From: an uncultured Fibrobacterota bacterium
GTDB taxonomy: Bacteria > Fibrobacterota > Fibrobacteria > Fibrobacterales > Fibrobacteraceae
Direction: 5' to 3'
Length of the DNA stretch: 32,000 nucleotides
Assembly (NCBI GenBank): GCA_903876665.1
Contig: CAIRAY010000093.1
Span: forward strand, 5,685-37,684
Below, one piece after another: positions 6,172 to 20,804 of this stretch. The position numbers and the translations under genes were made by a program. Numbering within the stretch: the stretch's first letter is position 1; every line of letters begins with the position of its first letter. A model generated the notes under the pieces. That model had not been told where the DNA came from, made no database searches, and worked only from the letters and a program-made list of their open reading frames with translations.

Positions 6172-7413
6172 AAGTTTGGCTGCGCGACGGCCAATCAGGT
6201 CGTCAGCGCCGGATTTCACCACGCGCTCCAACCATGGTCTGGCTACCCCAGGATTGTTGCTTGTTTGTATCCTCAATTCGGTGGCCTGCACAACGGCTGG
6301 TCGCGCAAGTGACGACGGAGTTCCGGGGGTCTGGGCGCATTTTTCCAGGCAGGCGATTGCGGATTTGAAAAATCCGAGTTCGCTCATCCGCACTCCCCAC
6401 TGGTACCAGAGTTCCGGGCCTACAGGCAAACAATAGTTGTTGTTCAGCAGCTTCTCCAGGACGCCTTCCACCATTTGTGGATCGGGCTTTGAGTATGCGA
6501 GCAACCCTTGCATTCCCCGTTCAATTTGCCCGAGCGCGGCATCGAGCTCCAGCAATTCGGCCAAGCGCCAGCCTTCCTGCAAATACTTACGCGTTTGTTG
6601 TAAGGGGTCCATGGTGCGAAGGGGAATTGTGGCTTTTACGGGGGCGAGGAGGGGGATTTTGGGAGCGAGTGCCCAGCCGAGCCCCAAAGCACCTAGGTCC
6701 AGAACAAAAACCCAGCCATAGTTGAGGGGGTTGACGAAGACTTGCACCACAAAATCCAGCACAATCCAGATTCCCGCGAAAATGAGGGGGTGCACTTGAA
6801 TTTGCCGAGGCTTTAACCACCAGCCTTGGAAGGGAATGGGATCCCGGTGAATGTGGGCGAGGATTCCCACCGCCACCGCAGAAGCCAAGCCCACGCCACA
6901 ATAGGGGATTTCCGCATGGACATCCCATAGAACAGTTACCCACAGATAATACAGGAAGGACCCCATCACCGAAAGGGCGATGACTCCTGCAAAGGGTTTT
7001 TGCCGGGACCATGACTTCTCTAGCCATAAGCCCGCATAGAGCAAGACCCAAAGCGAAAGCAAAAGCGAAATCCATCCTGGTGAAAGCAGCCAATTGGCAA
7101 AAAAGGCCAAGGGCCCTGCCCACATGGGCACCAGCCACACATTGTAGAAGAAGCTTTTGCCCACATACTCCTTCAAGTGGGCCTGGCGCCGGATTTCTTC
7201 TTCAGCCTTGTTGGGATCAACGCCTTGTTTGCTTAGAATCATGGATCGGCCGGTATTCCAGAGGACTTTGAATTTCTGGATTTCGGCCTGATAGTTTTTT
7301 TGCGCATAAATTGCGGGAACGAATGTGGCAAGCTGCACCAACACCAGAATCGACAAAAGAACGACCATGGGGCTTGCCAGCCACTTGATGGGACCTTGGG
7401 GTAGGGGAATCAA
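6154..7413 (-). CDS. Polytopic membrane protein, rhomboid-like core with a helical-repeat C-terminal domain
   Basis: There are about 7 hydrophobic segments. GWISLLLSLWVLLYAGLWLEKSWSRQK resembles the rhomboid TM2-loop block, and the C-terminal ~150 aa is helical and TPR-like. The tracked start is a TTG at 7413 overlapping the rsmA stop; an alternative ATG is at 7368. Confidence 0.6.
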   Translation of the reverse strand: MIPLPQGPIKWLASPMVVLLSILVLVQLATFVPAIYAQKNYQAEIQKFKVLWNTGRSMILSKQGVDPNKAEEEIRRQAHLKEYVGKSFFYNVWLVPMWAGPLAFFANWLLSPGWISLLLSLWVLLYAGLWLEKSWSRQKPFAGVIALSVMGSFLYYLWVTVLWDVHAEIPYCGVGLASAVAVGILAHIHRDPIPFQGWWLKPRQIQVHPLIFAGIWIVLDFVVQVFVNPLNYGWVFVLDLGALGLGWALAPKIPLLAPVKATIPLRTMDPLQQTRKYLQEGWRLAELLELDAALGQIERGMQGLLAYSKPDPQMVEGVLEKLLNNNYCLPVGPELWYQWGVRMSELGFFKSAIACLEKCAQTPGTPSSLARPAVVQATELRIQTSNNPGVARPWLERVVKSGADDLIGRRAAKLLTTIQ

Positions 7414-8222
7414 GGTTCCTCCGAGATGTTGTGCAAATGGTCAAACAGCATTAAAAAATCTTCGGGAGAAAATTCCTCGGCGCGGGAGTGCTCGGAGCGA
7501 CCAAGGTCTGCGACGGCTGTTGCCACCTGGGCTTTGCTCCAGCGGCCTTCCAAAGAATTGGAGAGTCGCTTGCGCTTGTGCTTGAAACAGGATTGCACGA
7601 ATTCAAAAAACCCCGGAGGGACGGCCAGGGGAGGAGTCCGGGGCGTCAACAGCACCGTGGCGGAATCCACATTGGGCTTGGGGGTGAAATGCTCGGGGCC
7701 GACTTTGCGCAGCAGGGTTGCGTTGCAATTCGACGAGACCAGCACGGAGAGGGATCCGTAGTCGCTCGATCCTGGTTTTGCGCAAAGCCTAAGCGCCACC
7801 TCGTACTGGACCATGGCCATGATTCCTTCGAGCCTGGGCATGGATTCCACCAGGCGCACCAGAATGGCGGTGGCGACATTGTAGGGAAGGTTCCCCGCGA
7901 CCCATAGGCCAGGGTGGCGGTCCAAAAATGAATCCAGGTCGAAATGCATAAAATCCTGGTTGATTACCGTGATGCCGTTTTTGGCAAACTGGGATTCCAC
8001 CTTTTGGGCGCATTCGGGATCGATTTCCACTGCGGTAATGCTTGCCGAGCGACCAACCAAGTGGCGAGTCAGGGCTCCGTGCCCGGGCCCAATCTCCAGC
8101 AGGTGCTGTGCCTTTTGAACGGGCAGGTCCGAGGCAATGGCGTAGGCCATCGCATCATCCAGAAAATTTTGCCCAAACCGTCGGCGTCTATTTCGATCCA
8201 TTTGGAAAATGTAGCTTCCCAT
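7410..8222 (-). CDS. rsmA: 16S rRNA (adenine1518/1519-N6)-dimethyltransferase
   Basis: RRRFGQNFLDD, the SAM motif LEIGPGHGALT, NLPYN, and the length all fit KsgA/RsmA. An alternative ATG is at 8201. Confidence 0.9.
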   Translation of the reverse strand: MGSYIFQMDRNRRRRFGQNFLDDAMAYAIASDLPVQKAQHLLEIGPGHGALTRHLVGRSASITAVEIDPECAQKVESQFAKNGITVINQDFMHFDLDSFLDRHPGLWVAGNLPYNVATAILVRLVESMPRLEGIMAMVQYEVALRLCAKPGSSDYGSLSVLVSSNCNATLLRKVGPEHFTPKPNVDSATVLLTPRTPPLAVPPGFFEFVQSCFKHKRKRLSNSLEGRWSKAQVATAVADLGRSEHSRAEEFSPEDFLMLFDHLHNISEEP

Positions 8223-8257
8223 GGCCGGATTCCGAAATTACCCAGGGCAAACGCATA

Positions 8258-8462
8258 AAGCGCAAAAAAGATGGTATTAAAGTGTCATGCCCGGCACGGG
8301 CATCGCCGGTGCTTGTTGCTGCATTGTTCGGGCGTGGTGCGGTGATGGTCCACACAGTGGATAGTGCTCCACTAAGGGCAAAGCCCTAAGTGGCCAAGCT
8401 TTGCATAGCTGCCAGTAACCGTAACTGGCAGCACATCGGCCCTTCCGGCCATGACAACCGGG
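8258..8462. repeat. Tandem duplication, copy 1 (139-bp core 8258-8396, 40-nt copy-specific insert, 26-nt tail)
   Basis: The core is identical to 8464-8602 apart from C8291 versus A8497. The tail 8437-8462 matches 8605-8630 at 24/26 positions. The insert 8397-8436 carries a perfect 9-bp hairpin, 8408-8416/8424-8432. Confidence 0.9.
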
Positions 8463-8463
8463 C

Positions 8464-8630
8464 AAGCGCAAAAAAGATGGTATTAAAGTGTCATGCACGG
8501 CACGGGCATCGCCGGTGCTTGTTGCTGCATTGTTCGGGCGTGGTGCGGTGATGGTCCACACAGTGGATAGTGCTCCACTAAGGGCAAAGCCCTAAGTGGC
8601 CACTCGGCCGTTCCGGCCATGATAACCGGG
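8464..8630. repeat. Tandem duplication, copy 2 (139-bp core 8464-8602 plus tail 8605-8630)
   Basis: It is offset from copy 1 by exactly 206 nt across the core, and 138/139 positions are identical. Confidence 0.9.
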
Positions 8631-8763
8631 ACGACAAAGAAAACACAGCCACCCAAAAGGCCTTGGATTTCTTTAATGCGTTTGCCTTGCGAAATTACCC
8701 ATATTCCTATGGACTTTTCTAAGTTGAATCGGTATTTTGTAAGACTTGAATGCCAGAAAAATC

Positions 8764-11700
8764 ATGTTCCGAAAGTATTTAAGGCACGCGACAGGATTGC
8801 TCCCCGCTCTGCTGGCTTTGGTGATGAGTGCCCACGCGCAGTCATCACCTGCGGTCGTACCCTCAAATGCGTCTGGGTCCAGCCTGGAATACATCCCCAC
8901 TCCTCCCAGCACCCATCCCTTGCAGGGCCTTCTCCCCAAAGGGGGAATTGGGCAACACCCGGCCTGGGGATATCTCAAAATGCCTGAGCGGAATTTGCTC
9001 AATCGCCACGAGGTAGATTTCGAAAGCCGCGAAGTCCGCATCCATGCCCTTTACTACAACACCCTATCCCGCGACACCACCAACATGTGGACCGCTTACT
9101 ATCAGGAGCTGACCTCCTACACTTTTGACATGTTCGACATTGGGTTCCGCAGGCTGTGGCTCAATTCCCTAATTGGGCAAAAGGATGGCGGGTCCGAATC
9201 CCAGGAAGGCTCCCTGTTTGATATTTCCATTCCGGTAAATATGCCTGCCTGGATGAAGGACCTTGGCCTGGACAAGCCCAAGCTACAACTTCAAGGGACA
9301 ATGAACATCAAGTTCACCGGAATTGGAACTTACGATGATGCACCCGGAAGTACGCAAAAATCCTTGTGGCCTTCTCCCAACTTGAGCTATGAACCGAGCT
9401 TCCTGGTCAAAGGAAAGATTGGGCGAAACATTACCGTCGAGATCAATAATACCGAAAGCGGCCTGGGCGTTCGCAATCAGTTGAAAGTGGTTTATGCCGA
9501 AGCGACCCCCGGGGAATTCGAGGACTTCATTCTGCAACGGGTGGAGTTGGGGTCCACCTCCCTCTCCCTCAAAGGCACGGAGCTAACCGGATATTCCGAG
9601 ACTCATACCGGTCTGTTCGGTGTCAAAGCCGACTTCAAGGTGGGCGACTGGAATTTGACCGCCATTGCTTCCCAGGACGGAGGCTCCACCGAAAAATACA
9701 AGATGCGCTCCAGCGAGCAGTCTGCAGAAGGCAAAATTGAGGATCGTCAGTTTGTGCCCTACAAATACTACTTCCTGACCCAAAAGTACCGCGCCGATTT
9801 CATTGCCTCTGCCATCCAAGGATCCACCCGCCCAATCACCATGCCAGTGGGTCTTGAACTGTATACCCGTCCCCGGGCCGAGGTTCTGGATGCAATTAAA
9901 GATGTGGATGCGCTGTATTACGATGCCAACGACAATCAAAGTGGACTTGGGATCACAAGTCTCATGTTGGTAAAAATGAGCGCCGAAGATTGGTCCTGGA
10001 ACCAGAATACGGGAACGGTGGTGATCAAGAACGGAAGCCGCAATACCCTGATTGTCGCGGCCTGGAACAATGCCCCAACCCATCAGGGAGCCGGGGGATT
10101 ACGCTCCGGCCAAAAGGCTGTCCTGGTCCAGACAGACGGCCAAACCAAACCTCATCTGGGCATTGAAAAGTTAATGCTTCGTAATGTCTATAACGTGGGC
10201 CTTTCCCAAGAAAACGCCACCGGCTTTGTGCTACGCATGAAGAATCAAACACTCAACGCTGTCGATTATCTGAAAACTCTTGGAGTGCTGGATAGTGCCT
10301 CGGGAAGCGCCAAAGTGACTGATGACGCCATTTTCCCCAAAGAGGGTTCCAAATACTCTGGTGAAATGTGGCTCCCCTGTCTGCCGGCGTCCTGGTATGT
10401 CAAATACAACAATGCCACCCAGGCTTTGGCGATTCAGCGAGCATCAGAAAACTGCCTGGAACCCCTGCGGGCTGTGGATTCCTCTGCCACGATCAAAAAT
10501 CTCTACACCTTGCCGGTCGCAAGTCTCACCTCCAGCCAATATGCTCCTCAGTACAGTTTTTATACCGTGGGAAAGCTTCGCTCGTCCTTTATGAGCATCC
10601 GCGATGCAGGTTCATCCTATTCGGTCAATTCGGGAAACTGCATAGACATTGCCCCGGGTTCCGAAACCCTGAAAATCAAATCGGACAAGCTGGTGGCCAA
10701 TGTCGATTATTCCGTGAACTACGAGCTGGGGCAAATTGAATTGTTGAGCGAAAAAGCCCTCAATCCCAATAACGAAATCGAAGTCACCTACGAATGTGAA
10801 CCACTGTTCCAAATTGACAACAAGCTTTTGTTGGGAGGTCGCGCAGAATATCCCATCAAGAGCTTAAGCGACAAATCCCTCTTTGGCTTGACTGCGCTGT
10901 ACAAGAGCCAGAGCACCACCCAGGAACAACCTCGCTTTGGTGGAGAACCCTATTCCAGCGTACTGCTTGGCGCAAACTTGACTTTGCAGGATTCCGCCCG
11001 TTGGATGGACCGTTTCACCAATGCCCTTCCTTTCATTGACACCAAGGCCCGCTCCCAATGGACCGTCGAAGGAGAAGTCGCGGCCAGTTACCACAATGCC
11101 AACACCTCCGCCAACAAAACCGCATTGCTGGACGATTTTGAAAACAGCCTGCGCTCCATCCAGTATTCCACCTACCGGACCTTCTGGTACCCTGCCTCAC
11201 CACCGGGTGGCACCATCGATGATCCTTCCACCTATATCCCGCTTTTGGATTTCAAGCACAAAGGTGAATTCATTTGGCATTCCAACCAGAGCGAGCGCTA
11301 TCGCAATGTCTATACTGCGGTCGGGAATACGGAAGTGGACTCCCGCGAACTGCCGATCCTCAAATTCACCTTGCGTCCCAACGACAATCTGGAAGGAAAT
11401 TCCTGGGGTGGCGTCATGCGCGCCAACGGAACTTACAATCAGGATTTAAGCGATTTCCGTTATCTGGAAGTGGTGGCCCGTGGCAACGTGGGCAATCTTT
11501 TTGTGGACCTGGGTGCGATCAGTGAAGATGTTCCTGTAGGCGGGATGGAACCCAACCGGGAGATCAATACCGAGGCCGATCCTTGGACCGCAAAGGCCAA
11601 CGACGACAACGGTATAGACGGCGTGGGAGACGGGACATCGACCTCCACGGCAAGCGAAGTTCGGGTGGATTGGAATTGCCGTGTGCCGGGATGCATTGCG

Positions 11701-14700
11701 GACACGGTGAAAACCGGCGCGAACCCTGACCTGGCCCAGGATAATTTTTCCTTGCAGGAAAATGATACAGATCCCGATGTGCATATCAACGGTACCGAAG
11801 GAAACAACGGCCCCAATGAACGCCCCTACGACACGGAAGATTTGAACGACAACCGTTCCCTCGAAGTCGATAACCGCTTTGTGCGCTATCGCATCAATTT
11901 AGAATCTACCGACCTCAATGATTTTGAAGAGCTGAAGAACGGCTGGCGCCGCTGGCGCATCCCGCTTTCGGAATACGACACCATTGTTTCCGGTGATGGC
12001 ACTTCCTGGCAAGAGATTCTTGGCCAAACGCCCATGACCCGCATCTGGTACGGAAGGCTCAAGCATGGCGTGGTGGAAGGTCAATCCCAGATTCTCGATT
12101 TGCGCATCGTAGGCAATCAATGGACTGCGGATTCCACCGGCAACCAATATGGTGTCGTGGTCGATGGCCCAACCCAGACCGTCATCGTGGATGGAATGCC
12201 AGTGCAAGTTACCGTGCCGGGCACAGTTGTCAAGCAGGACACCAATTATTTGCGCGTTCGTGTCCTCAATAATCGCGATGATGCCGGCACCTATTTCAAG
12301 AGCGAAAAAACCGTCACCGAGCGCGATGCCCAGACTAGCGCTGCGCTCAAAGAACAAAGTCTGGTCATGGATTTTGGTGGTCTGCACAAAAACCAGGCTG
12401 TCAGTGCCACGCGGTTTTTCGATGGTGAAGAAAAGGACTTGACTCAATACCAAAAGATCCAACTGGAAATCCTCTACAAGAGCGACGCCATCCGCAGTGC
12501 CACCGATTCCATCCCCGTGCGCTTCGCGGTCCAGCTTGGTCTGGGTGGCCCCGAGGGTTCGACGAATTATTACGAATGGTCCTATACGCCCCGCCTGATG
12601 AATAGCGCGGAATGTACCGCAGAGAGGCTTACCATTCAGAATTGCCATGAGCAGAATTGGGACGACAACCGCTTTGTCCTGGATCTGAGTAAATTCGTGG
12701 ATTTGAAAAAAGGCAGAGGTCCACGCGATTTGCCCAAATATGTTTCCATTCCTTCGTCCACCAAGTTTGAACGCAACGAGCGGGTCGGCATTGTGGGGAA
12801 CCCATCCATTGGGCGCGTGAACTGGGTTCGCTTTGTGGTGATTGCCCAGGACTCGCTTGCCCGTTCCGGTTCGCTCTGGGTGAACGATCTGCGGCTTTCC
12901 GGCATGAGCAATGAATGGGGCGTAGCGGCTCGTTTGCGCGCGCAAATGGACTTTGCCGACCTCATGACCCTTTCCGGTGAGTTGAATTATCGCGATGGTG
13001 CCTTTGCCACCCTCAAAAGCGAAGGCAAGTCCCCCAAGCCCACGCTGGCTGAATCCAATGCGAGCCTGGAGGCCAAGGCCAACTACTCGCTCAATATCAA
13101 TAAATTCTTCAAGGACGAGTGGATGTTGCACATGCCACTCTCCCTGAGTTATGATGCGTCGGTTCTTCGCCCTTATTTGAAACCCCAGAGCGATGAGCGG
13201 CTCAGCAAGGATGACCTGAAGGAAATATCGACCCACTCGTTCAATGTCACCCAGGACGATTTGGCTGGTCCCATGGATACCCTGTTGTCTCGGGACCTTC
13301 GCGATGGATTGGACTCTGCGGAGCAGTATCTTCGGGACAACCAGAAGTCCAAAGGTTTTCAGAATTTCTCTCGCACCAAGAGCTTGAGCATTGGCTACGC
13401 CAAAGAGCATACGGAAGATGAAAATCTGTGGATGGATTGGGCAACCCAGGCCTTCCTGGAACGGCCCGAATTCAATTTCCGCTACAGTGAAACCCAGTCC
13501 CACTCGGCCACCAGCGCCGATTCGTCCTACACCTACGGCGCTTCCCTGAAATACAAGTTGGGCTCTTACAAGCCCTTTAACCTCACTCCCTTCAAAGCCT
13601 TTCCTTCGCTGGTTTTTGAGCCCTGGCCCCAGACCATGGACGTTACCCTTGCCGATTTCCTCTACAGCAAGTCGCTGGGGCAGGAACTCGATCCAAACTA
13701 TGTCGCACCACTGGCGGATCCTACCCAGATTTTTGGTGTCGACTTGAAACACAAAATTGATATGCGGTGGAATATTCTCCCCTTCTTGACTGCCGCCTAT
13801 TCCCTCGGAGTCGAACGCGATATGAACCGTGGCCATGACCGGCAATCCTTCACCCGCGATAATTTCTTTGACCCGGGCAGCGAAAATGGATTATTTGCCA
13901 GAAAGGTCGTATTTGACTATGACACCAATGACTGCGAGCTGGTCATTGCCAAAAGCAAGGATTCCGTTGCGGTGGAATACAAGGTGGCCCGTGACGGTCA
14001 GACCTTGAATGAGCTCGACTCCTCCACCTATAATTTGGATACCACCTGGATTCAACGGGATACTATTGTTGATGTGGGCGACTGTTCCTACGGTCGTCGC
14101 TTTGGTGTGCTCCGCAACGAACGCTCCCGCACCCAGGATTTCAAGCTCAACTTCAATCCCATGGTCATCCCATTTTTGCCCACGCGCTTCACTTTCGGAA
14201 GCACGTTCCAGCAGAACAAGACCATCCCGACTCCCTTTAGCCTGCTGGATCCGGAGACTTTGAAGAAAAACTTCTGGAGCATTGAGCAGACCAACCGCTT
14301 CGAAGTGATTCCTACGGTGAAGCTAGTGGATCTCTTTGGCTGGGGATCCAAAAATAAGGTTACCGAATTCCTGAACAAGTGGAAGCTACAAGAATTACGC
14401 ACAAACTGGTCGGTAGATGTGGGCACCAAGGGCGAAGACTTTACCTTATACCAATTGCGCGAACGACAGAAGGTCACTCCGGCACAATATTACCTCTACG
14501 GACTAGGCATTGGCGATGGCAAGAGCGTGCGCAATTTCTGGGACCTCGTGACTGGTGACATGAATCTTAATCGCGACGATTACGAACAATTCGCTGAATA
14601 CCGCAACCGGCATGTAGATACTTTGGTGTATCAAGGTGCATTTACGCATGCCGTCAAGCGCAATGCTTCCTTGGGGTCAAATCTAACCTTGCCCATCTGG

Positions 14701-15642
14701 GATGTCGCTATTACGGGTGACCTGTTTTGGTCCGAAGAGTTTACCCAGAAGCGGGAGACGCCCCTTTACCTGGACACCACCACCACCTGGCCCAAGGCAG
14801 GCGTGGGCGTAACGATTCCCAATTTTGCGAGCCGTTTGAACCTGTTGAAGAGTTATTTCAGCTCTTTTGCCCTCAACCATCGCACGGATTACACCTTTAC
14901 ACGCTCGGTCACTCCGTTCCAGAATGCGGAAGACGAATGGAAGACCGAATGGGGATTTTCGCCCTTGGTGAGCATCCAAACTCTCACAAAAAAGAACGTC
15001 CACATCGATAACGACATCAATCTGAATTTATCCCATTCCTTGCGCCGTCCAAAAATCCAGGTGGTGCCATACCCCGGCTGGCCAGATACCACGACCCACA
15101 GCACCCTGGATAGCTCGCTGTTTATCGATGTTCCTTGGATGCACACCGATTCCAACCAGAGCTGGGGGACCAAAATTGGGGATGAGCTTTCCATTGGTTA
15201 CGATCTGAAGACCGCGCGAGGATTCCAGCTTTTCAAGTGGTACTTCCGTCTCAAAAACAACATCAATCTGAAATTGAATACCGGCCTCACCTACGAAACC
15301 ATTCGTTACCGTGAGCGGGCAGTGGTCCCGGATTACAGTCCAATTCAGAACAATGCCTCTGCAGGTTCGGTAAACGGAAAGATCGCCTGCGACGACAAGG
15401 GTGAAAACTGCCAATTGGTGTACAATCCGCTGTTTGTGGAGGTCTCCGACGAAACTGAACGGACTCCTACGGCCACGTGGGAATACTACATCCGCCCCAA
15501 TGCGGGTTACCAGTTCAACAAGATGGCTACCGGAAGCGCGTTCCTGGAATATCGATACAATCGATCCAAAACCAACGATGGCGAAACGAATTCCATCCAT
15601 ACCCTACGGTTTGAAATCGCGCTGATGCTGCAGTTTGATTAG
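8764..15642 (+). CDS. sprA: Type IX secretion system translocon / gliding-motility protein SprA (Sov family), about 2290 aa
   Basis: The giant ORF has a signal peptide, MFRKYLRHATGLLPALLALVMSAHA-Q, when started at ATG 8764; the tracked start at 8746 is a TTG. The N-terminal block KGKIGRNITVEINNTES...LKVVYAE....FEDFILQRVELG...LFGVKADFKVGDWNLTAIASQDGG matches the remembered SprA N-terminal repeat consensus (kGkiGdkl.v..n.nte...lkl.Y.g..ediiq.iE.G...LfG.k..l.fG....t.v.Sqq). The C-terminus is beta-rich and ends MLQFD. Confidence 0.85.
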   Translation: MFRKYLRHATGLLPALLALVMSAHAQSSPAVVPSNASGSSLEYIPTPPSTHPLQGLLPKGGIGQHPAWGYLKMPERNLLNRHEVDFESREVRIHALYYNTLSRDTTNMWTAYYQELTSYTFDMFDIGFRRLWLNSLIGQKDGGSESQEGSLFDISIPVNMPAWMKDLGLDKPKLQLQGTMNIKFTGIGTYDDAPGSTQKSLWPSPNLSYEPSFLVKGKIGRNITVEINNTESGLGVRNQLKVVYAEATPGEFEDFILQRVELGSTSLSLKGTELTGYSETHTGLFGVKADFKVGDWNLTAIASQDGGSTEKYKMRSSEQSAEGKIEDRQFVPYKYYFLTQKYRADFIASAIQGSTRPITMPVGLELYTRPRAEVLDAIKDVDALYYDANDNQSGLGITSLMLVKMSAEDWSWNQNTGTVVIKNGSRNTLIVAAWNNAPTHQGAGGLRSGQKAVLVQTDGQTKPHLGIEKLMLRNVYNVGLSQENATGFVLRMKNQTLNAVDYLKTLGVLDSASGSAKVTDDAIFPKEGSKYSGEMWLPCLPASWYVKYNNATQALAIQRASENCLEPLRAVDSSATIKNLYTLPVASLTSSQYAPQYSFYTVGKLRSSFMSIRDAGSSYSVNSGNCIDIAPGSETLKIKSDKLVANVDYSVNYELGQIELLSEKALNPNNEIEVTYECEPLFQIDNKLLLGGRAEYPIKSLSDKSLFGLTALYKSQSTTQEQPRFGGEPYSSVLLGANLTLQDSARWMDRFTNALPFIDTKARSQWTVEGEVAASYHNANTSANKTALLDDFENSLRSIQYSTYRTFWYPASPPGGTIDDPSTYIPLLDFKHKGEFIWHSNQSERYRNVYTAVGNTEVDSRELPILKFTLRPNDNLEGNSWGGVMRANGTYNQDLSDFRYLEVVARGNVGNLFVDLGAISEDVPVGGMEPNREINTEADPWTAKANDDNGIDGVGDGTSTSTASEVRVDWNCRVPGCIADTVKTGANPDLAQDNFSLQENDTDPDVHINGTEGNNGPNERPYDTEDLNDNRSLEVDNRFVRYRINLESTDLNDFEELKNGWRRWRIPLSEYDTIVSGDGTSWQEILGQTPMTRIWYGRLKHGVVEGQSQILDLRIVGNQWTADSTGNQYGVVVDGPTQTVIVDGMPVQVTVPGTVVKQDTNYLRVRVLNNRDDAGTYFKSEKTVTERDAQTSAALKEQSLVMDFGGLHKNQAVSATRFFDGEEKDLTQYQKIQLEILYKSDAIRSATDSIPVRFAVQLGLGGPEGSTNYYEWSYTPRLMNSAECTAERLTIQNCHEQNWDDNRFVLDLSKFVDLKKGRGPRDLPKYVSIPSSTKFERNERVGIVGNPSIGRVNWVRFVVIAQDSLARSGSLWVNDLRLSGMSNEWGVAARLRAQMDFADLMTLSGELNYRDGAFATLKSEGKSPKPTLAESNASLEAKANYSLNINKFFKDEWMLHMPLSLSYDASVLRPYLKPQSDERLSKDDLKEISTHSFNVTQDDLAGPMDTLLSRDLRDGLDSAEQYLRDNQKSKGFQNFSRTKSLSIGYAKEHTEDENLWMDWATQAFLERPEFNFRYSETQSHSATSADSSYTYGASLKYKLGSYKPFNLTPFKAFPSLVFEPWPQTMDVTLADFLYSKSLGQELDPNYVAPLADPTQIFGVDLKHKIDMRWNILPFLTAAYSLGVERDMNRGHDRQSFTRDNFFDPGSENGLFARKVVFDYDTNDCELVIAKSKDSVAVEYKVARDGQTLNELDSSTYNLDTTWIQRDTIVDVGDCSYGRRFGVLRNERSRTQDFKLNFNPMVIPFLPTRFTFGSTFQQNKTIPTPFSLLDPETLKKNFWSIEQTNRFEVIPTVKLVDLFGWGSKNKVTEFLNKWKLQELRTNWSVDVGTKGEDFTLYQLRERQKVTPAQYYLYGLGIGDGKSVRNFWDLVTGDMNLNRDDYEQFAEYRNRHVDTLVYQGAFTHAVKRNASLGSNLTLPIWDVAITGDLFWSEEFTQKRETPLYLDTTTTWPKAGVGVTIPNFASRLNLLKSYFSSFALNHRTDYTFTRSVTPFQNAEDEWKTEWGFSPLVSIQTLTKKNVHIDNDINLNLSHSLRRPKIQVVPYPGWPDTTTHSTLDSSLFIDVPWMHTDSNQSWGTKIGDELSIGYDLKTARGFQLFKWYFRLKNNINLKLNTGLTYETIRYRERAVVPDYSPIQNNASAGSVNGKIACDDKGENCQLVYNPLFVEVSDETERTPTATWEYYIRPNAGYQFNKMATGSAFLEYRYNRSKTNDGETNSIHTLRFEIALMLQFD

Positions 15643-20489: not shown

Positions 20490-20599
20490 AAGTTTCGACT
20501 CTCCGCATTAAGATAGTCACATTTGCGATGAAATGCCATATCTTGTTTAAAATCAACAAGTTAAGAGTAGCGAAATTTGTGCCGAAAGAAGGGAGGTAC

Positions 20600-20804
20600 A
20601 AGTGGAAAGTGAACAGCCCGGGTTGCGGATCGGTTGGCTAGTGGAATACACAGGGGTGTATAAGTTCCCGTATTCCGCCTGGGCGGAACGGTCACTATTA
20701 AGTGGAAAATTGCGAAATGTATTCTCTTTCAGGGAAATTTGCCCGCAATTTTCCGTTTTCCACTAGGGTGTCGTGCAGAGAATCTGGCTGTTCACTTTCC
20801 ACTT
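20600..20804. repeat. Nested perfect inverted repeats (205-bp palindromic element) in the fliE-fliF spacer
   Basis: Outer arms 20600-20618 and 20786-20804 pair over 19/19 bp. Middle arms 20638-20646 and 20758-20766 pair over 9/9 bp and share the same centre. An internal hairpin, 20704-20714/20744-20754, pairs over 11/11 bp. Small hairpins lie at 20646-20661 and 20673-20688. The AGTGGAA core occurs 5 times. Confidence 0.85.

Follow-up and report, generated by a model that had tools for sequence, protein, structure and literature searches.

We found that the DNA between the divergent genes rsmA and sprA in an uncultured Fibrobacterota bacterium is, with a probability that we put at about 85%, a 447-bp non-autonomous mobile element (MITE) of the ISAs1 type whose core is duplicated in tandem. 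The window, by which we mean the whole stretch of 32,000 nucleotides that was analysed, carries this element at positions 8243-8689. An earlier sequence-only reading of the region had described a near-identical tandem pair just upstream of sprA and had offered three interpretations: the pair might be two sRNA genes, a leader or promoter that had become duplicated, or a small repeat element. Of these three only the small repeat element is supported, the unit being dispersed throughout the genome. That reading did not contain three points: the pair lies inside a bounded element, the element is flanked by a 10-bp repeat, and the unit is not unique.

The boundaries of the element are defined by its ends and by the target sequence that it has duplicated. 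The terminal inverted repeats start with CAGGG/CAAGG-CAAACGCAT; the left end reads CAGGGCAAACGCAT and the right end, as its reverse complement, CAAGGCAAACGCAT, and the two 18-nt terminal repeats match at 16 of 18 positions. A repeat search returned two further pairs, a direct one of 15 nt at 8230/8687 and an inverted one at 8236-8259/8673-8696. When the whole spacer was used as a BLAST query, everything from about 8243 to 8689 was found repeated elsewhere in the bacterium's own genome, while the portions outside these limits were unique in it. The motif GGCAAACGCAT occurs at many loci, where one of its sides is always different and the other falls into a few classes, a pattern that marks the end of a transposon. 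ISAs1 elements have inverted repeats of 14-22 bp that start with CAGGG and a direct repeat of 10 bp (PMC11946415); ISArsp11, an example of the family, has CAGGGCTGATGC... ends and a 10-bp repeat (PMC6305408). Since the window element has the ends and the target duplication of ISAs1 and lacks a transposase gene, it is best described as an ISAs1-type MITE. It is shorter than 600 bp, contains no transposase ORF and belongs to a set of multiple copies, as is expected of a MITE in size and in copy number. Folded as single-stranded DNA, the whole element gives a z-score of -5.1 against shuffled sequences.

The identities of rsmA and sprA were verified by profile matches, placing the array between these two divergent genes as first described (Table 1). 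Between the element and the ATG codons there are 20 nt on the left, towards rsmA, and 74 nt on the right, towards sprA. The spacer measures 541 bp; subtraction of 457 bp, the element plus one copy of the target, leaves 84 bp. Divergent rsmA-sprA spacers in relatives with the same arrangement are about 55-130 bp long, as estimated from the ends of tblastn alignments. The evidence for an insertion is the target duplication and the spacer length. The relatives are distant (rsmA at most 61% identical). In the window sprA, a gene of the type IX secretion system (T9SS), adjoins flagellar genes.

Table 1. Features of the rsmA-sprA spacer, other complete elements with 10-bp flanking repeats in the same genome, and the locus in other assemblies. 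Positions without a prefix refer to the window.
Feature	Position or source	Strand	Length	Details
rsmA/ksgA, 16S rRNA dimethyltransferase	7410-8222	-		TIGR00755 235.7 bits, PF00398 188 bits
Left target-site duplication copy	8233-8242		10 bp	CGAAATTACC, perfect
Complete non-autonomous element (probable MITE), ISAs1-type ends	8243-8689	+	447 bp	flanking repeat CGAAATTACC, 10/10
Left terminal inverted repeat	8243-8260	+		CAGGGCAAACGCATAAAG, core GGGCAAACGCAT
Tandem unit copy 1	8258-8463	+	206 nt	left-arm segment, palindrome, linker, hairpins, 40-nt module, inverted palindrome
Locus-specific left-arm segment	8258-8282	+		exact repeat at 8464-8488
REP-like palindrome	8283-8307		25 nt	TGTCATGCCCGG-C-ACGGGCATCGCC; second copy 8489-8513
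Hairpin modules	8340-8396	+		CCACACAGTGG and stem 8369-8379/8383-8393; repeated at 8546-8602
40-nt module	8397-8436	+	40 nt	hairpin 8408-8419/8421-8432; copy 1 only
Inverted, diverged palindrome partner	8437-8459	-		closes core 8283-8459; second copy 8605-8627
Tandem unit copy 2	8464-8630	+	167 nt	as copy 1 without the 40-nt module
Right arm and right terminal inverted repeat	8631-8689	+		repeat at 8672-8689, reverse complement CAAGGCAAACGCATTAAA
Right target-site duplication copy	8690-8699		10 bp	CGAAATTACC, perfect
sprA, T9SS translocon	8764-15642	+		TIGR04189 811 bits
C80 element	C80		160 bp	10-bp flanking repeat 10/10
C50 element	C50		237 bp	10-bp flanking repeat 9/10
C124 element	C124		286 bp	10-bp flanking repeat 9/10
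C125 element	C125		486 bp	10-bp flanking repeat 9/10
C13 insertion sequence	C13:31312-32826		1515 bp	flanking repeat GCATTTCCTG, 10/10
L084/L090	ENA ERZ27313532			rsmA to sprA, 335-bp spacer (541 minus 206), one unit, C at variable site, no 40-nt module
L085	ENA ERZ27313531			copy 1, junction, into copy 2; A at variable site in both
L086	Logan ERR4221447			C in copy 1
L087	JGI 3300045653			C in copy 1
L088	Logan ERR4222594			A in copy 1

The anatomy of the tandem pair agrees with what the sequence-only reading had described. By repeat search, 8258-8396 and 8464-8602 are identical at 138 of 139 positions (99%), with C8291 against A8497 as the sole mismatch. A second shared block was recovered at 8436-8462 and 8604-8630, where 27 nt match at 93%, and the coordinates first read for it, with 24 of 26 positions identical, hold. 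The hairpin that is peculiar to copy 1 has arms that pair at 92% over 12 nt and that include the perfect 9-bp core noticed originally. Stems at 8287-8293/8297-8303 and 8369-8379/8383-8393 are present both in the sequence and in the folds, and the one proposed at 8301-8308/8340-8347 consists of seven Watson-Crick pairs and one G-T pair. No reading frame is common to both copies, as had been claimed, because the period of 206 nt is not a multiple of 3. A TRF run on the window overlooked the array owing to the 40-nt indel. In an RNA fold the core gives a z-score of -2.7 and its two ends pair with one another. Copies of 8437-8459 elsewhere in the genome read CGGCCGTGCCGGGCATGACA, which is approximately the reverse complement of 8283-8305; this stretch is thus a diverged inverted partner of the palindrome, and the core 8283-8459 is bounded by palindromes on both sides. 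The parts in between also occur elsewhere: the hairpin modules of 8340-8396 are dispersed independently and in both orientations, the second hairpin has different stems in other copies with complementarity kept, and the 40-nt module belongs to a 70-nt unit (8388-8457) with 22 copies elsewhere.

The duplication arose at this site. The left-arm segment 8258-8282 has a best match of only 84-87% elsewhere in the genome and is therefore specific to the locus; its exact repetition at the start of the second copy shows that the 206-bp tandem duplication was local. Two independent insertions were considered as the origin of the units and were ruled out, the second unit carrying those 25 nt of locus-specific left arm. 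There is support for the suggestion that the near-identity comes from gene conversion or from a very recent duplication: the copies are 99.3% identical to each other, compared with 91% for the best match elsewhere, and the mismatch differs between samples. Tandem amplification of this kind recurs in the genome, and the closest relative of the window element (C22/C66) has a 197-bp tandem repeat.

Exact searches with the rsmA and sprA proteins retrieved contigs of the same locus in other assemblies (Table 1). The left end of the element, together with the target duplication, is present in all five rsmA contigs from other assemblies, and no empty allele was seen among these five assemblies. In the metagenome_contigs collection neither the 24-mer of the predicted empty junction nor the occupied-site junction is present. 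The tandem junction (8450-8490) occurs in the window and in the separately assembled L085, and it is real in at least two assemblies. The single unit of L084 could be produced in two ways, for unequal crossover within the 105-bp identical stretch and collapse by the assembler would give the same result; either the copy number is polymorphic or one assembly is mis-assembled. Variation of both copy number and SNP between samples fits a recent duplication with recombination or gene conversion. In one further contig (L089:1257-1500; ENA ERZ27313531, k141_407804) sprA is preceded not by rsmA but by a phosphoribosyltransferase gene from the C164 locus. The join runs through a 51-nt module common to the sprA and C164 loci, and it is either a mis-join by the assembler or a real repeat-mediated rearrangement.

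Members of the same MITE family and a candidate source of transposase are present in the genome of the bacterium, which we searched as an assembly of 4.32 Mb in 192 contigs that is 92.9% complete. This assembly holds 67 instances of the 18-nt end motif, against three in a shuffled genome, and a palindrome half-site lies on the inner side of 42 of the 67 motifs and on the outer side of five. Pairing of the ends gave six complete elements with 10-bp flanking repeats, among them the window element and the C13 insertion sequence; MITE family members are 160-486 bp long. In all six aligned members of the MITE family the palindrome core lies between the same left and right arms. The right arms at C22 and C66 are 95% identical to that of the window element, and arms of the same class are found at C80, C90, C124 and C189. 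The C13 insertion sequence encodes an intact 375-aa transposase that matches the ISAs1 profile NF033564 at 379.6 bits (cut-off 70) and also PF13808 (DDE_Tnp_1_assoc) and PF01609 (DDE_Tnp_1). The core GGGCAAACGCAT is found at both of its ends, where the 2-nt tips are CA and TA. Only the first 19 or so nucleotides of each end are alike in the window element and the C13 insertion sequence, their interiors being unrelated, and C13 is the sole copy of an ISAs1-family insertion sequence in the assembly. An extra 80-aa ORF lies within the C13 element upstream of the transposase. The DDE_Tnp_1 elements at C140 and C84 were rejected as partners, their ends being unrelated to these repeats. The genome has only three DDE_Tnp_1 transposase genes, yet it has hundreds of short repeats; its 4.3 Mb compare with 1.6-3.9 Mb in the 24 genomes of the same family that were sampled.

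The palindrome in the core of the element is a member of a much larger population. The tandem unit has 56 BLAST matches in its own genome, and the unit together with its sub-modules occurs at about 167 loci, in both orientations and as fragmentary mosaics. Among the interior pieces a 25-nt palindrome, TGTCATGCCCGG-N-ACGGGCATCAC, is the commonest. When its structure is strictly defined, it has 217 sites in the genome and none in a shuffled genome, and its stems vary in a complementary manner: GCCCG/CGGGC at 107 sites, GGCCG/CGGCC at 70, CCCCG/CGGGG at 12 and CCCCC/GGGGG at 10. Stop-free frames of at least 200 codons make up 88.8% of the genome and hold 53 of the 217 palindromes (24%). Inverted doublets of about 68-70 nt occur at many loci, as do mosaics with other hairpin modules. 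At least 15 palindrome-holding arrays were found by TRF in the genome, with periods of 52-318 bp; the units match at 94-98% in 12 of these palindrome arrays, at 93% in the C125 array and at 72% and 77% in two arrays of C181. A palindrome lies within 400 nt of 45 of the 384 contig ends. The MITE cannot explain how the palindrome family has spread, for 189 of the 217 strict palindromes have no ISAs1-type end within 350 nt. The genome_contigs collection does not contain the exact 24-nt palindrome, and the repeat was not found in 40 related genomes.

Several other repeats were seen in the course of this work. Three more families of end motif occur as outer inverted repeats of the palindrome, for example at C146:2587, C43:20489 and C140:25075, with 33 (CAAAGTGTTTATGGAT), 19 (GATATCAACAAATCGG) and 52 (TTATGCGACATGAA) hits, and no partner transposase was identified for any of the three. 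In the window itself the fliE-fliF spacer (20597-20804) holds a palindromic element of about 205 bp that represents a second, unrelated dispersed repeat family; a BLAST search with it against the same genome gave 84 HSPs, which involve at least 14 contigs, with 73-97% identity among the matches listed, and it probably constitutes another family of MITEs. Tandem arrays of a different kind, with no relation to the palindrome, periods of 74-81 bp and 93-100% identity, form the ends of many contigs (C17:1-231, C40:1-213, C50:1-261, C59:1-218, C78:1-194 and C93:73190-73389), and these are another class of repeat that breaks the assembly.

Four other explanations deserve to be weighed against the ISAs1-type MITE. 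A role of the two units as small-RNA genes, or as an sprA leader or attenuator present in duplicate, would suit their position upstream of that gene and their richness in hairpins, to which the z-scores of the core RNA and of the element DNA (-2.7 and -5.1) bear witness. This reading is nevertheless extremely improbable. The unit is a generic dispersed repeat, a circumstance that the sequence-only reading had itself named as decisive against small RNAs or a leader: it lies in both orientations at some 167 loci, beside unrelated genes and at 45 contig ends, and relatives in which the genes are arranged in the same way lack it upstream of sprA. An Rfam cmscan of 7800-9200 on both strands gave no match at E <= 1, a tRNA/tmRNA scan gave none, and a scan for sigma-70-like or terminator-like sites found none. 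The 206-nt period disrupts any common reading frame, and one assembly has a single unit. That last fact also speaks for another interpretation, in which the duplication is an artefact of assembly and the real genome has one unit only: L084 (ENA ERZ27313532) runs from rsmA into sprA and has just one unit, in a 335-bp spacer, the draft of 192 contigs breaks at these repeats, and the join in L089 through the 51-nt module demonstrates that assemblers mis-join, or genomes recombine, here. An artefact is very unlikely all the same, for the locus-specific junction (inverted palindrome, left-arm segment, palindrome) is present in the window and in L085, which comes from another sample; the copies are told apart by one SNP, the 40-nt indel and two more mismatches; and assemblers usually collapse tandem repeats rather than invent them.

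The history of the core and its possible use by the cell offer the other two alternatives. The interior could be a REP/BIME cluster, spread by a RAYT-like HUH transposase that acts on its hairpins, and could have invaded a small, pre-existing ISAs1 MITE that served only as its landing pad. The 217 extragenic copies with their compensatory stem variants, the inverted doublets of about 68 nt and the tandem arrays all agree with such an origin, as does the distance of 189 of the 217 copies from ISAs1-type ends; moreover, sub-families that share the inner palindrome and differ in their outer extensions fit hairpin-guided cleavage better than transposition by a DDE enzyme that recognises ends. We hold this origin to be unlikely. 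No RAYT gene with a Y1 transposase domain (PF01797) was matched in the 92.9%-complete genome, an assembly that breaks at these repeats, while control genomes did give matches, and neither TnpB (PF07282) nor IS110 (PF01548) has a gene there. Ten of the 14 genes bracketed by palindromes were scanned against Pfam and none resembled a transposase or a nuclease: seven were a DUF4405 protein, a TPR protein, a DsrE protein, two AAA ATPases, a Fic protein and an amidohydrolase, and three had no match. The core also occupies the same relative position in six of six members, suggesting that it is ancestral to the MITE family rather than an invader that entered repeatedly. Co-option of the element as a regulatory module, whether through an rsmA promoter in its left arm or through hairpins that would insulate the divergent genes, seems improbable on the features of the sequence. 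With 20 nt between the left end and the rsmA ATG, an upstream promoter of rsmA would have to lie in or beyond the element; the only FCB-type pair of boxes is TAATTTCG at 8240-8233 on the minus strand with TTTG 22 nt upstream in the left arm; and the insertion is found in all five other assemblies. Against this, the box has one mismatch and its consensus is that of Bacteroidota, which may not be the consensus of a host in the Fibrobacterales, and fixation over so few samples is weak evidence.

Taken as an ISAs1-type MITE, the element has much in common with known systems and differs from each of them. Like the insertion sequences of the ISAs1 family (ISAs1 of Aeromonas salmonicida, ISArsp11 and the H-repeats of E. 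coli) it starts with CAGGG, has inverted repeats of about 18 nt and a 10-bp target duplication, and its terminal core GGGCAAACGCAT is found beside an intact transposase of the family in the same genome; unlike them it has 447 bp and no transposase gene, and so is a non-autonomous derivative. It resembles the bacterial MITEs, such as Correia/NEMIS of Neisseria, RUP of Streptococcus and the MaeMITEs of Microcystis, in measuring less than 600 bp, in its terminal inverted repeats and target-site duplication, in its multiple intergenic copies, in its strong predicted secondary structure and in its location in a promoter region. It differs from those MITEs in having an internal 206-bp tandem duplication and a core formed by a high-copy palindrome whose copies outside the MITE greatly outnumber those within. 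A limited search of the literature on ISAs1 and MITEs found no description of a MITE of the ISAs1 family. The palindromes, for their part, recall the REP, BIME and REPIN sequences of Enterobacteria and Pseudomonas (PMC2817692, PMC3333891, PMC3116915): they are imperfect, about 25 nt long, extragenic and present in more than 200 copies, with compensatory stems, inverted doublets of about 68 nt, mosaic clusters and tandem arrays. They differ from these in that no RAYT (Y1 transposase) gene and no recognised GTAG-type head were found with them and, in contrast to REPINs, many copies lie inside elements with DDE-type ends and target duplications. The less ordinary aspect of this system is the large, lineage-restricted and RAYT-less palindrome population that is the shared core of several MITE-like families. 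It is a doubtful but conceivable proposition that REP-like palindromes would thrive in this Fibrobacterales lineage without a RAYT, spreading because several MITE families, each with its own outer ends and one of them driven by a single ISAs1 transposase, have them in common as inner core, and that tandem amplification within the carriers, of the kind found at rsmA-sprA, would make new copies. If true, this would be a route to REP proliferation and concerted evolution other than that of the RAYT-REPIN model.

These observations suggest a history for the site. The ends of the element, the duplication of its target and an autonomous partner can be read directly from the DNA, and the element would have been moved by transposase supplied in trans from C13, the site of the genome's single ISAs1-family insertion sequence, although the presence of only one copy of that sequence in the assembly counts against mobilisation from there. 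It would have inserted into a divergent rsmA-sprA spacer of originally about 84 bp, duplicating 10 bp of the target, and would have carried a core bounded by the REP-like palindrome (TGTCATGCCCGG...CCGGGCATGACA) that is seen as part of a genome-wide, extragenic, BIME-like mosaic population. After insertion a stretch of 206 bp, comprising 25 nt of the left arm and the core, would have been duplicated in tandem, probably by replication slippage or unequal recombination, and the near-identity of the copies may have been kept through recency or gene conversion. An insertion 20 nt from the rsmA ATG displaces whatever lay upstream of that gene. Judged by its sequence, the element is most likely selfish DNA that has no dedicated function and is tolerated at this site; any effect on the expression of rsmA or sprA would be a by-product of its position.

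The spacer of about 540 bp is thus to be seen as a transposon insertion in a normally short divergent promoter region and not as a pair of sRNA genes or a leader of sprA, and the biology of the T9SS is unchanged unless expression data indicate otherwise. The repeat family fragments the assembly, and it gives rise to differences in copy number and in joining between assemblies of the same population. An ISAs1-type MITE family is documented here together with its autonomous partner. The REP-like population lacks a detectable RAYT and lives in a lineage where 40 relatives are without both, and it offers a case for the study of the invasion of genomes by short repeats.
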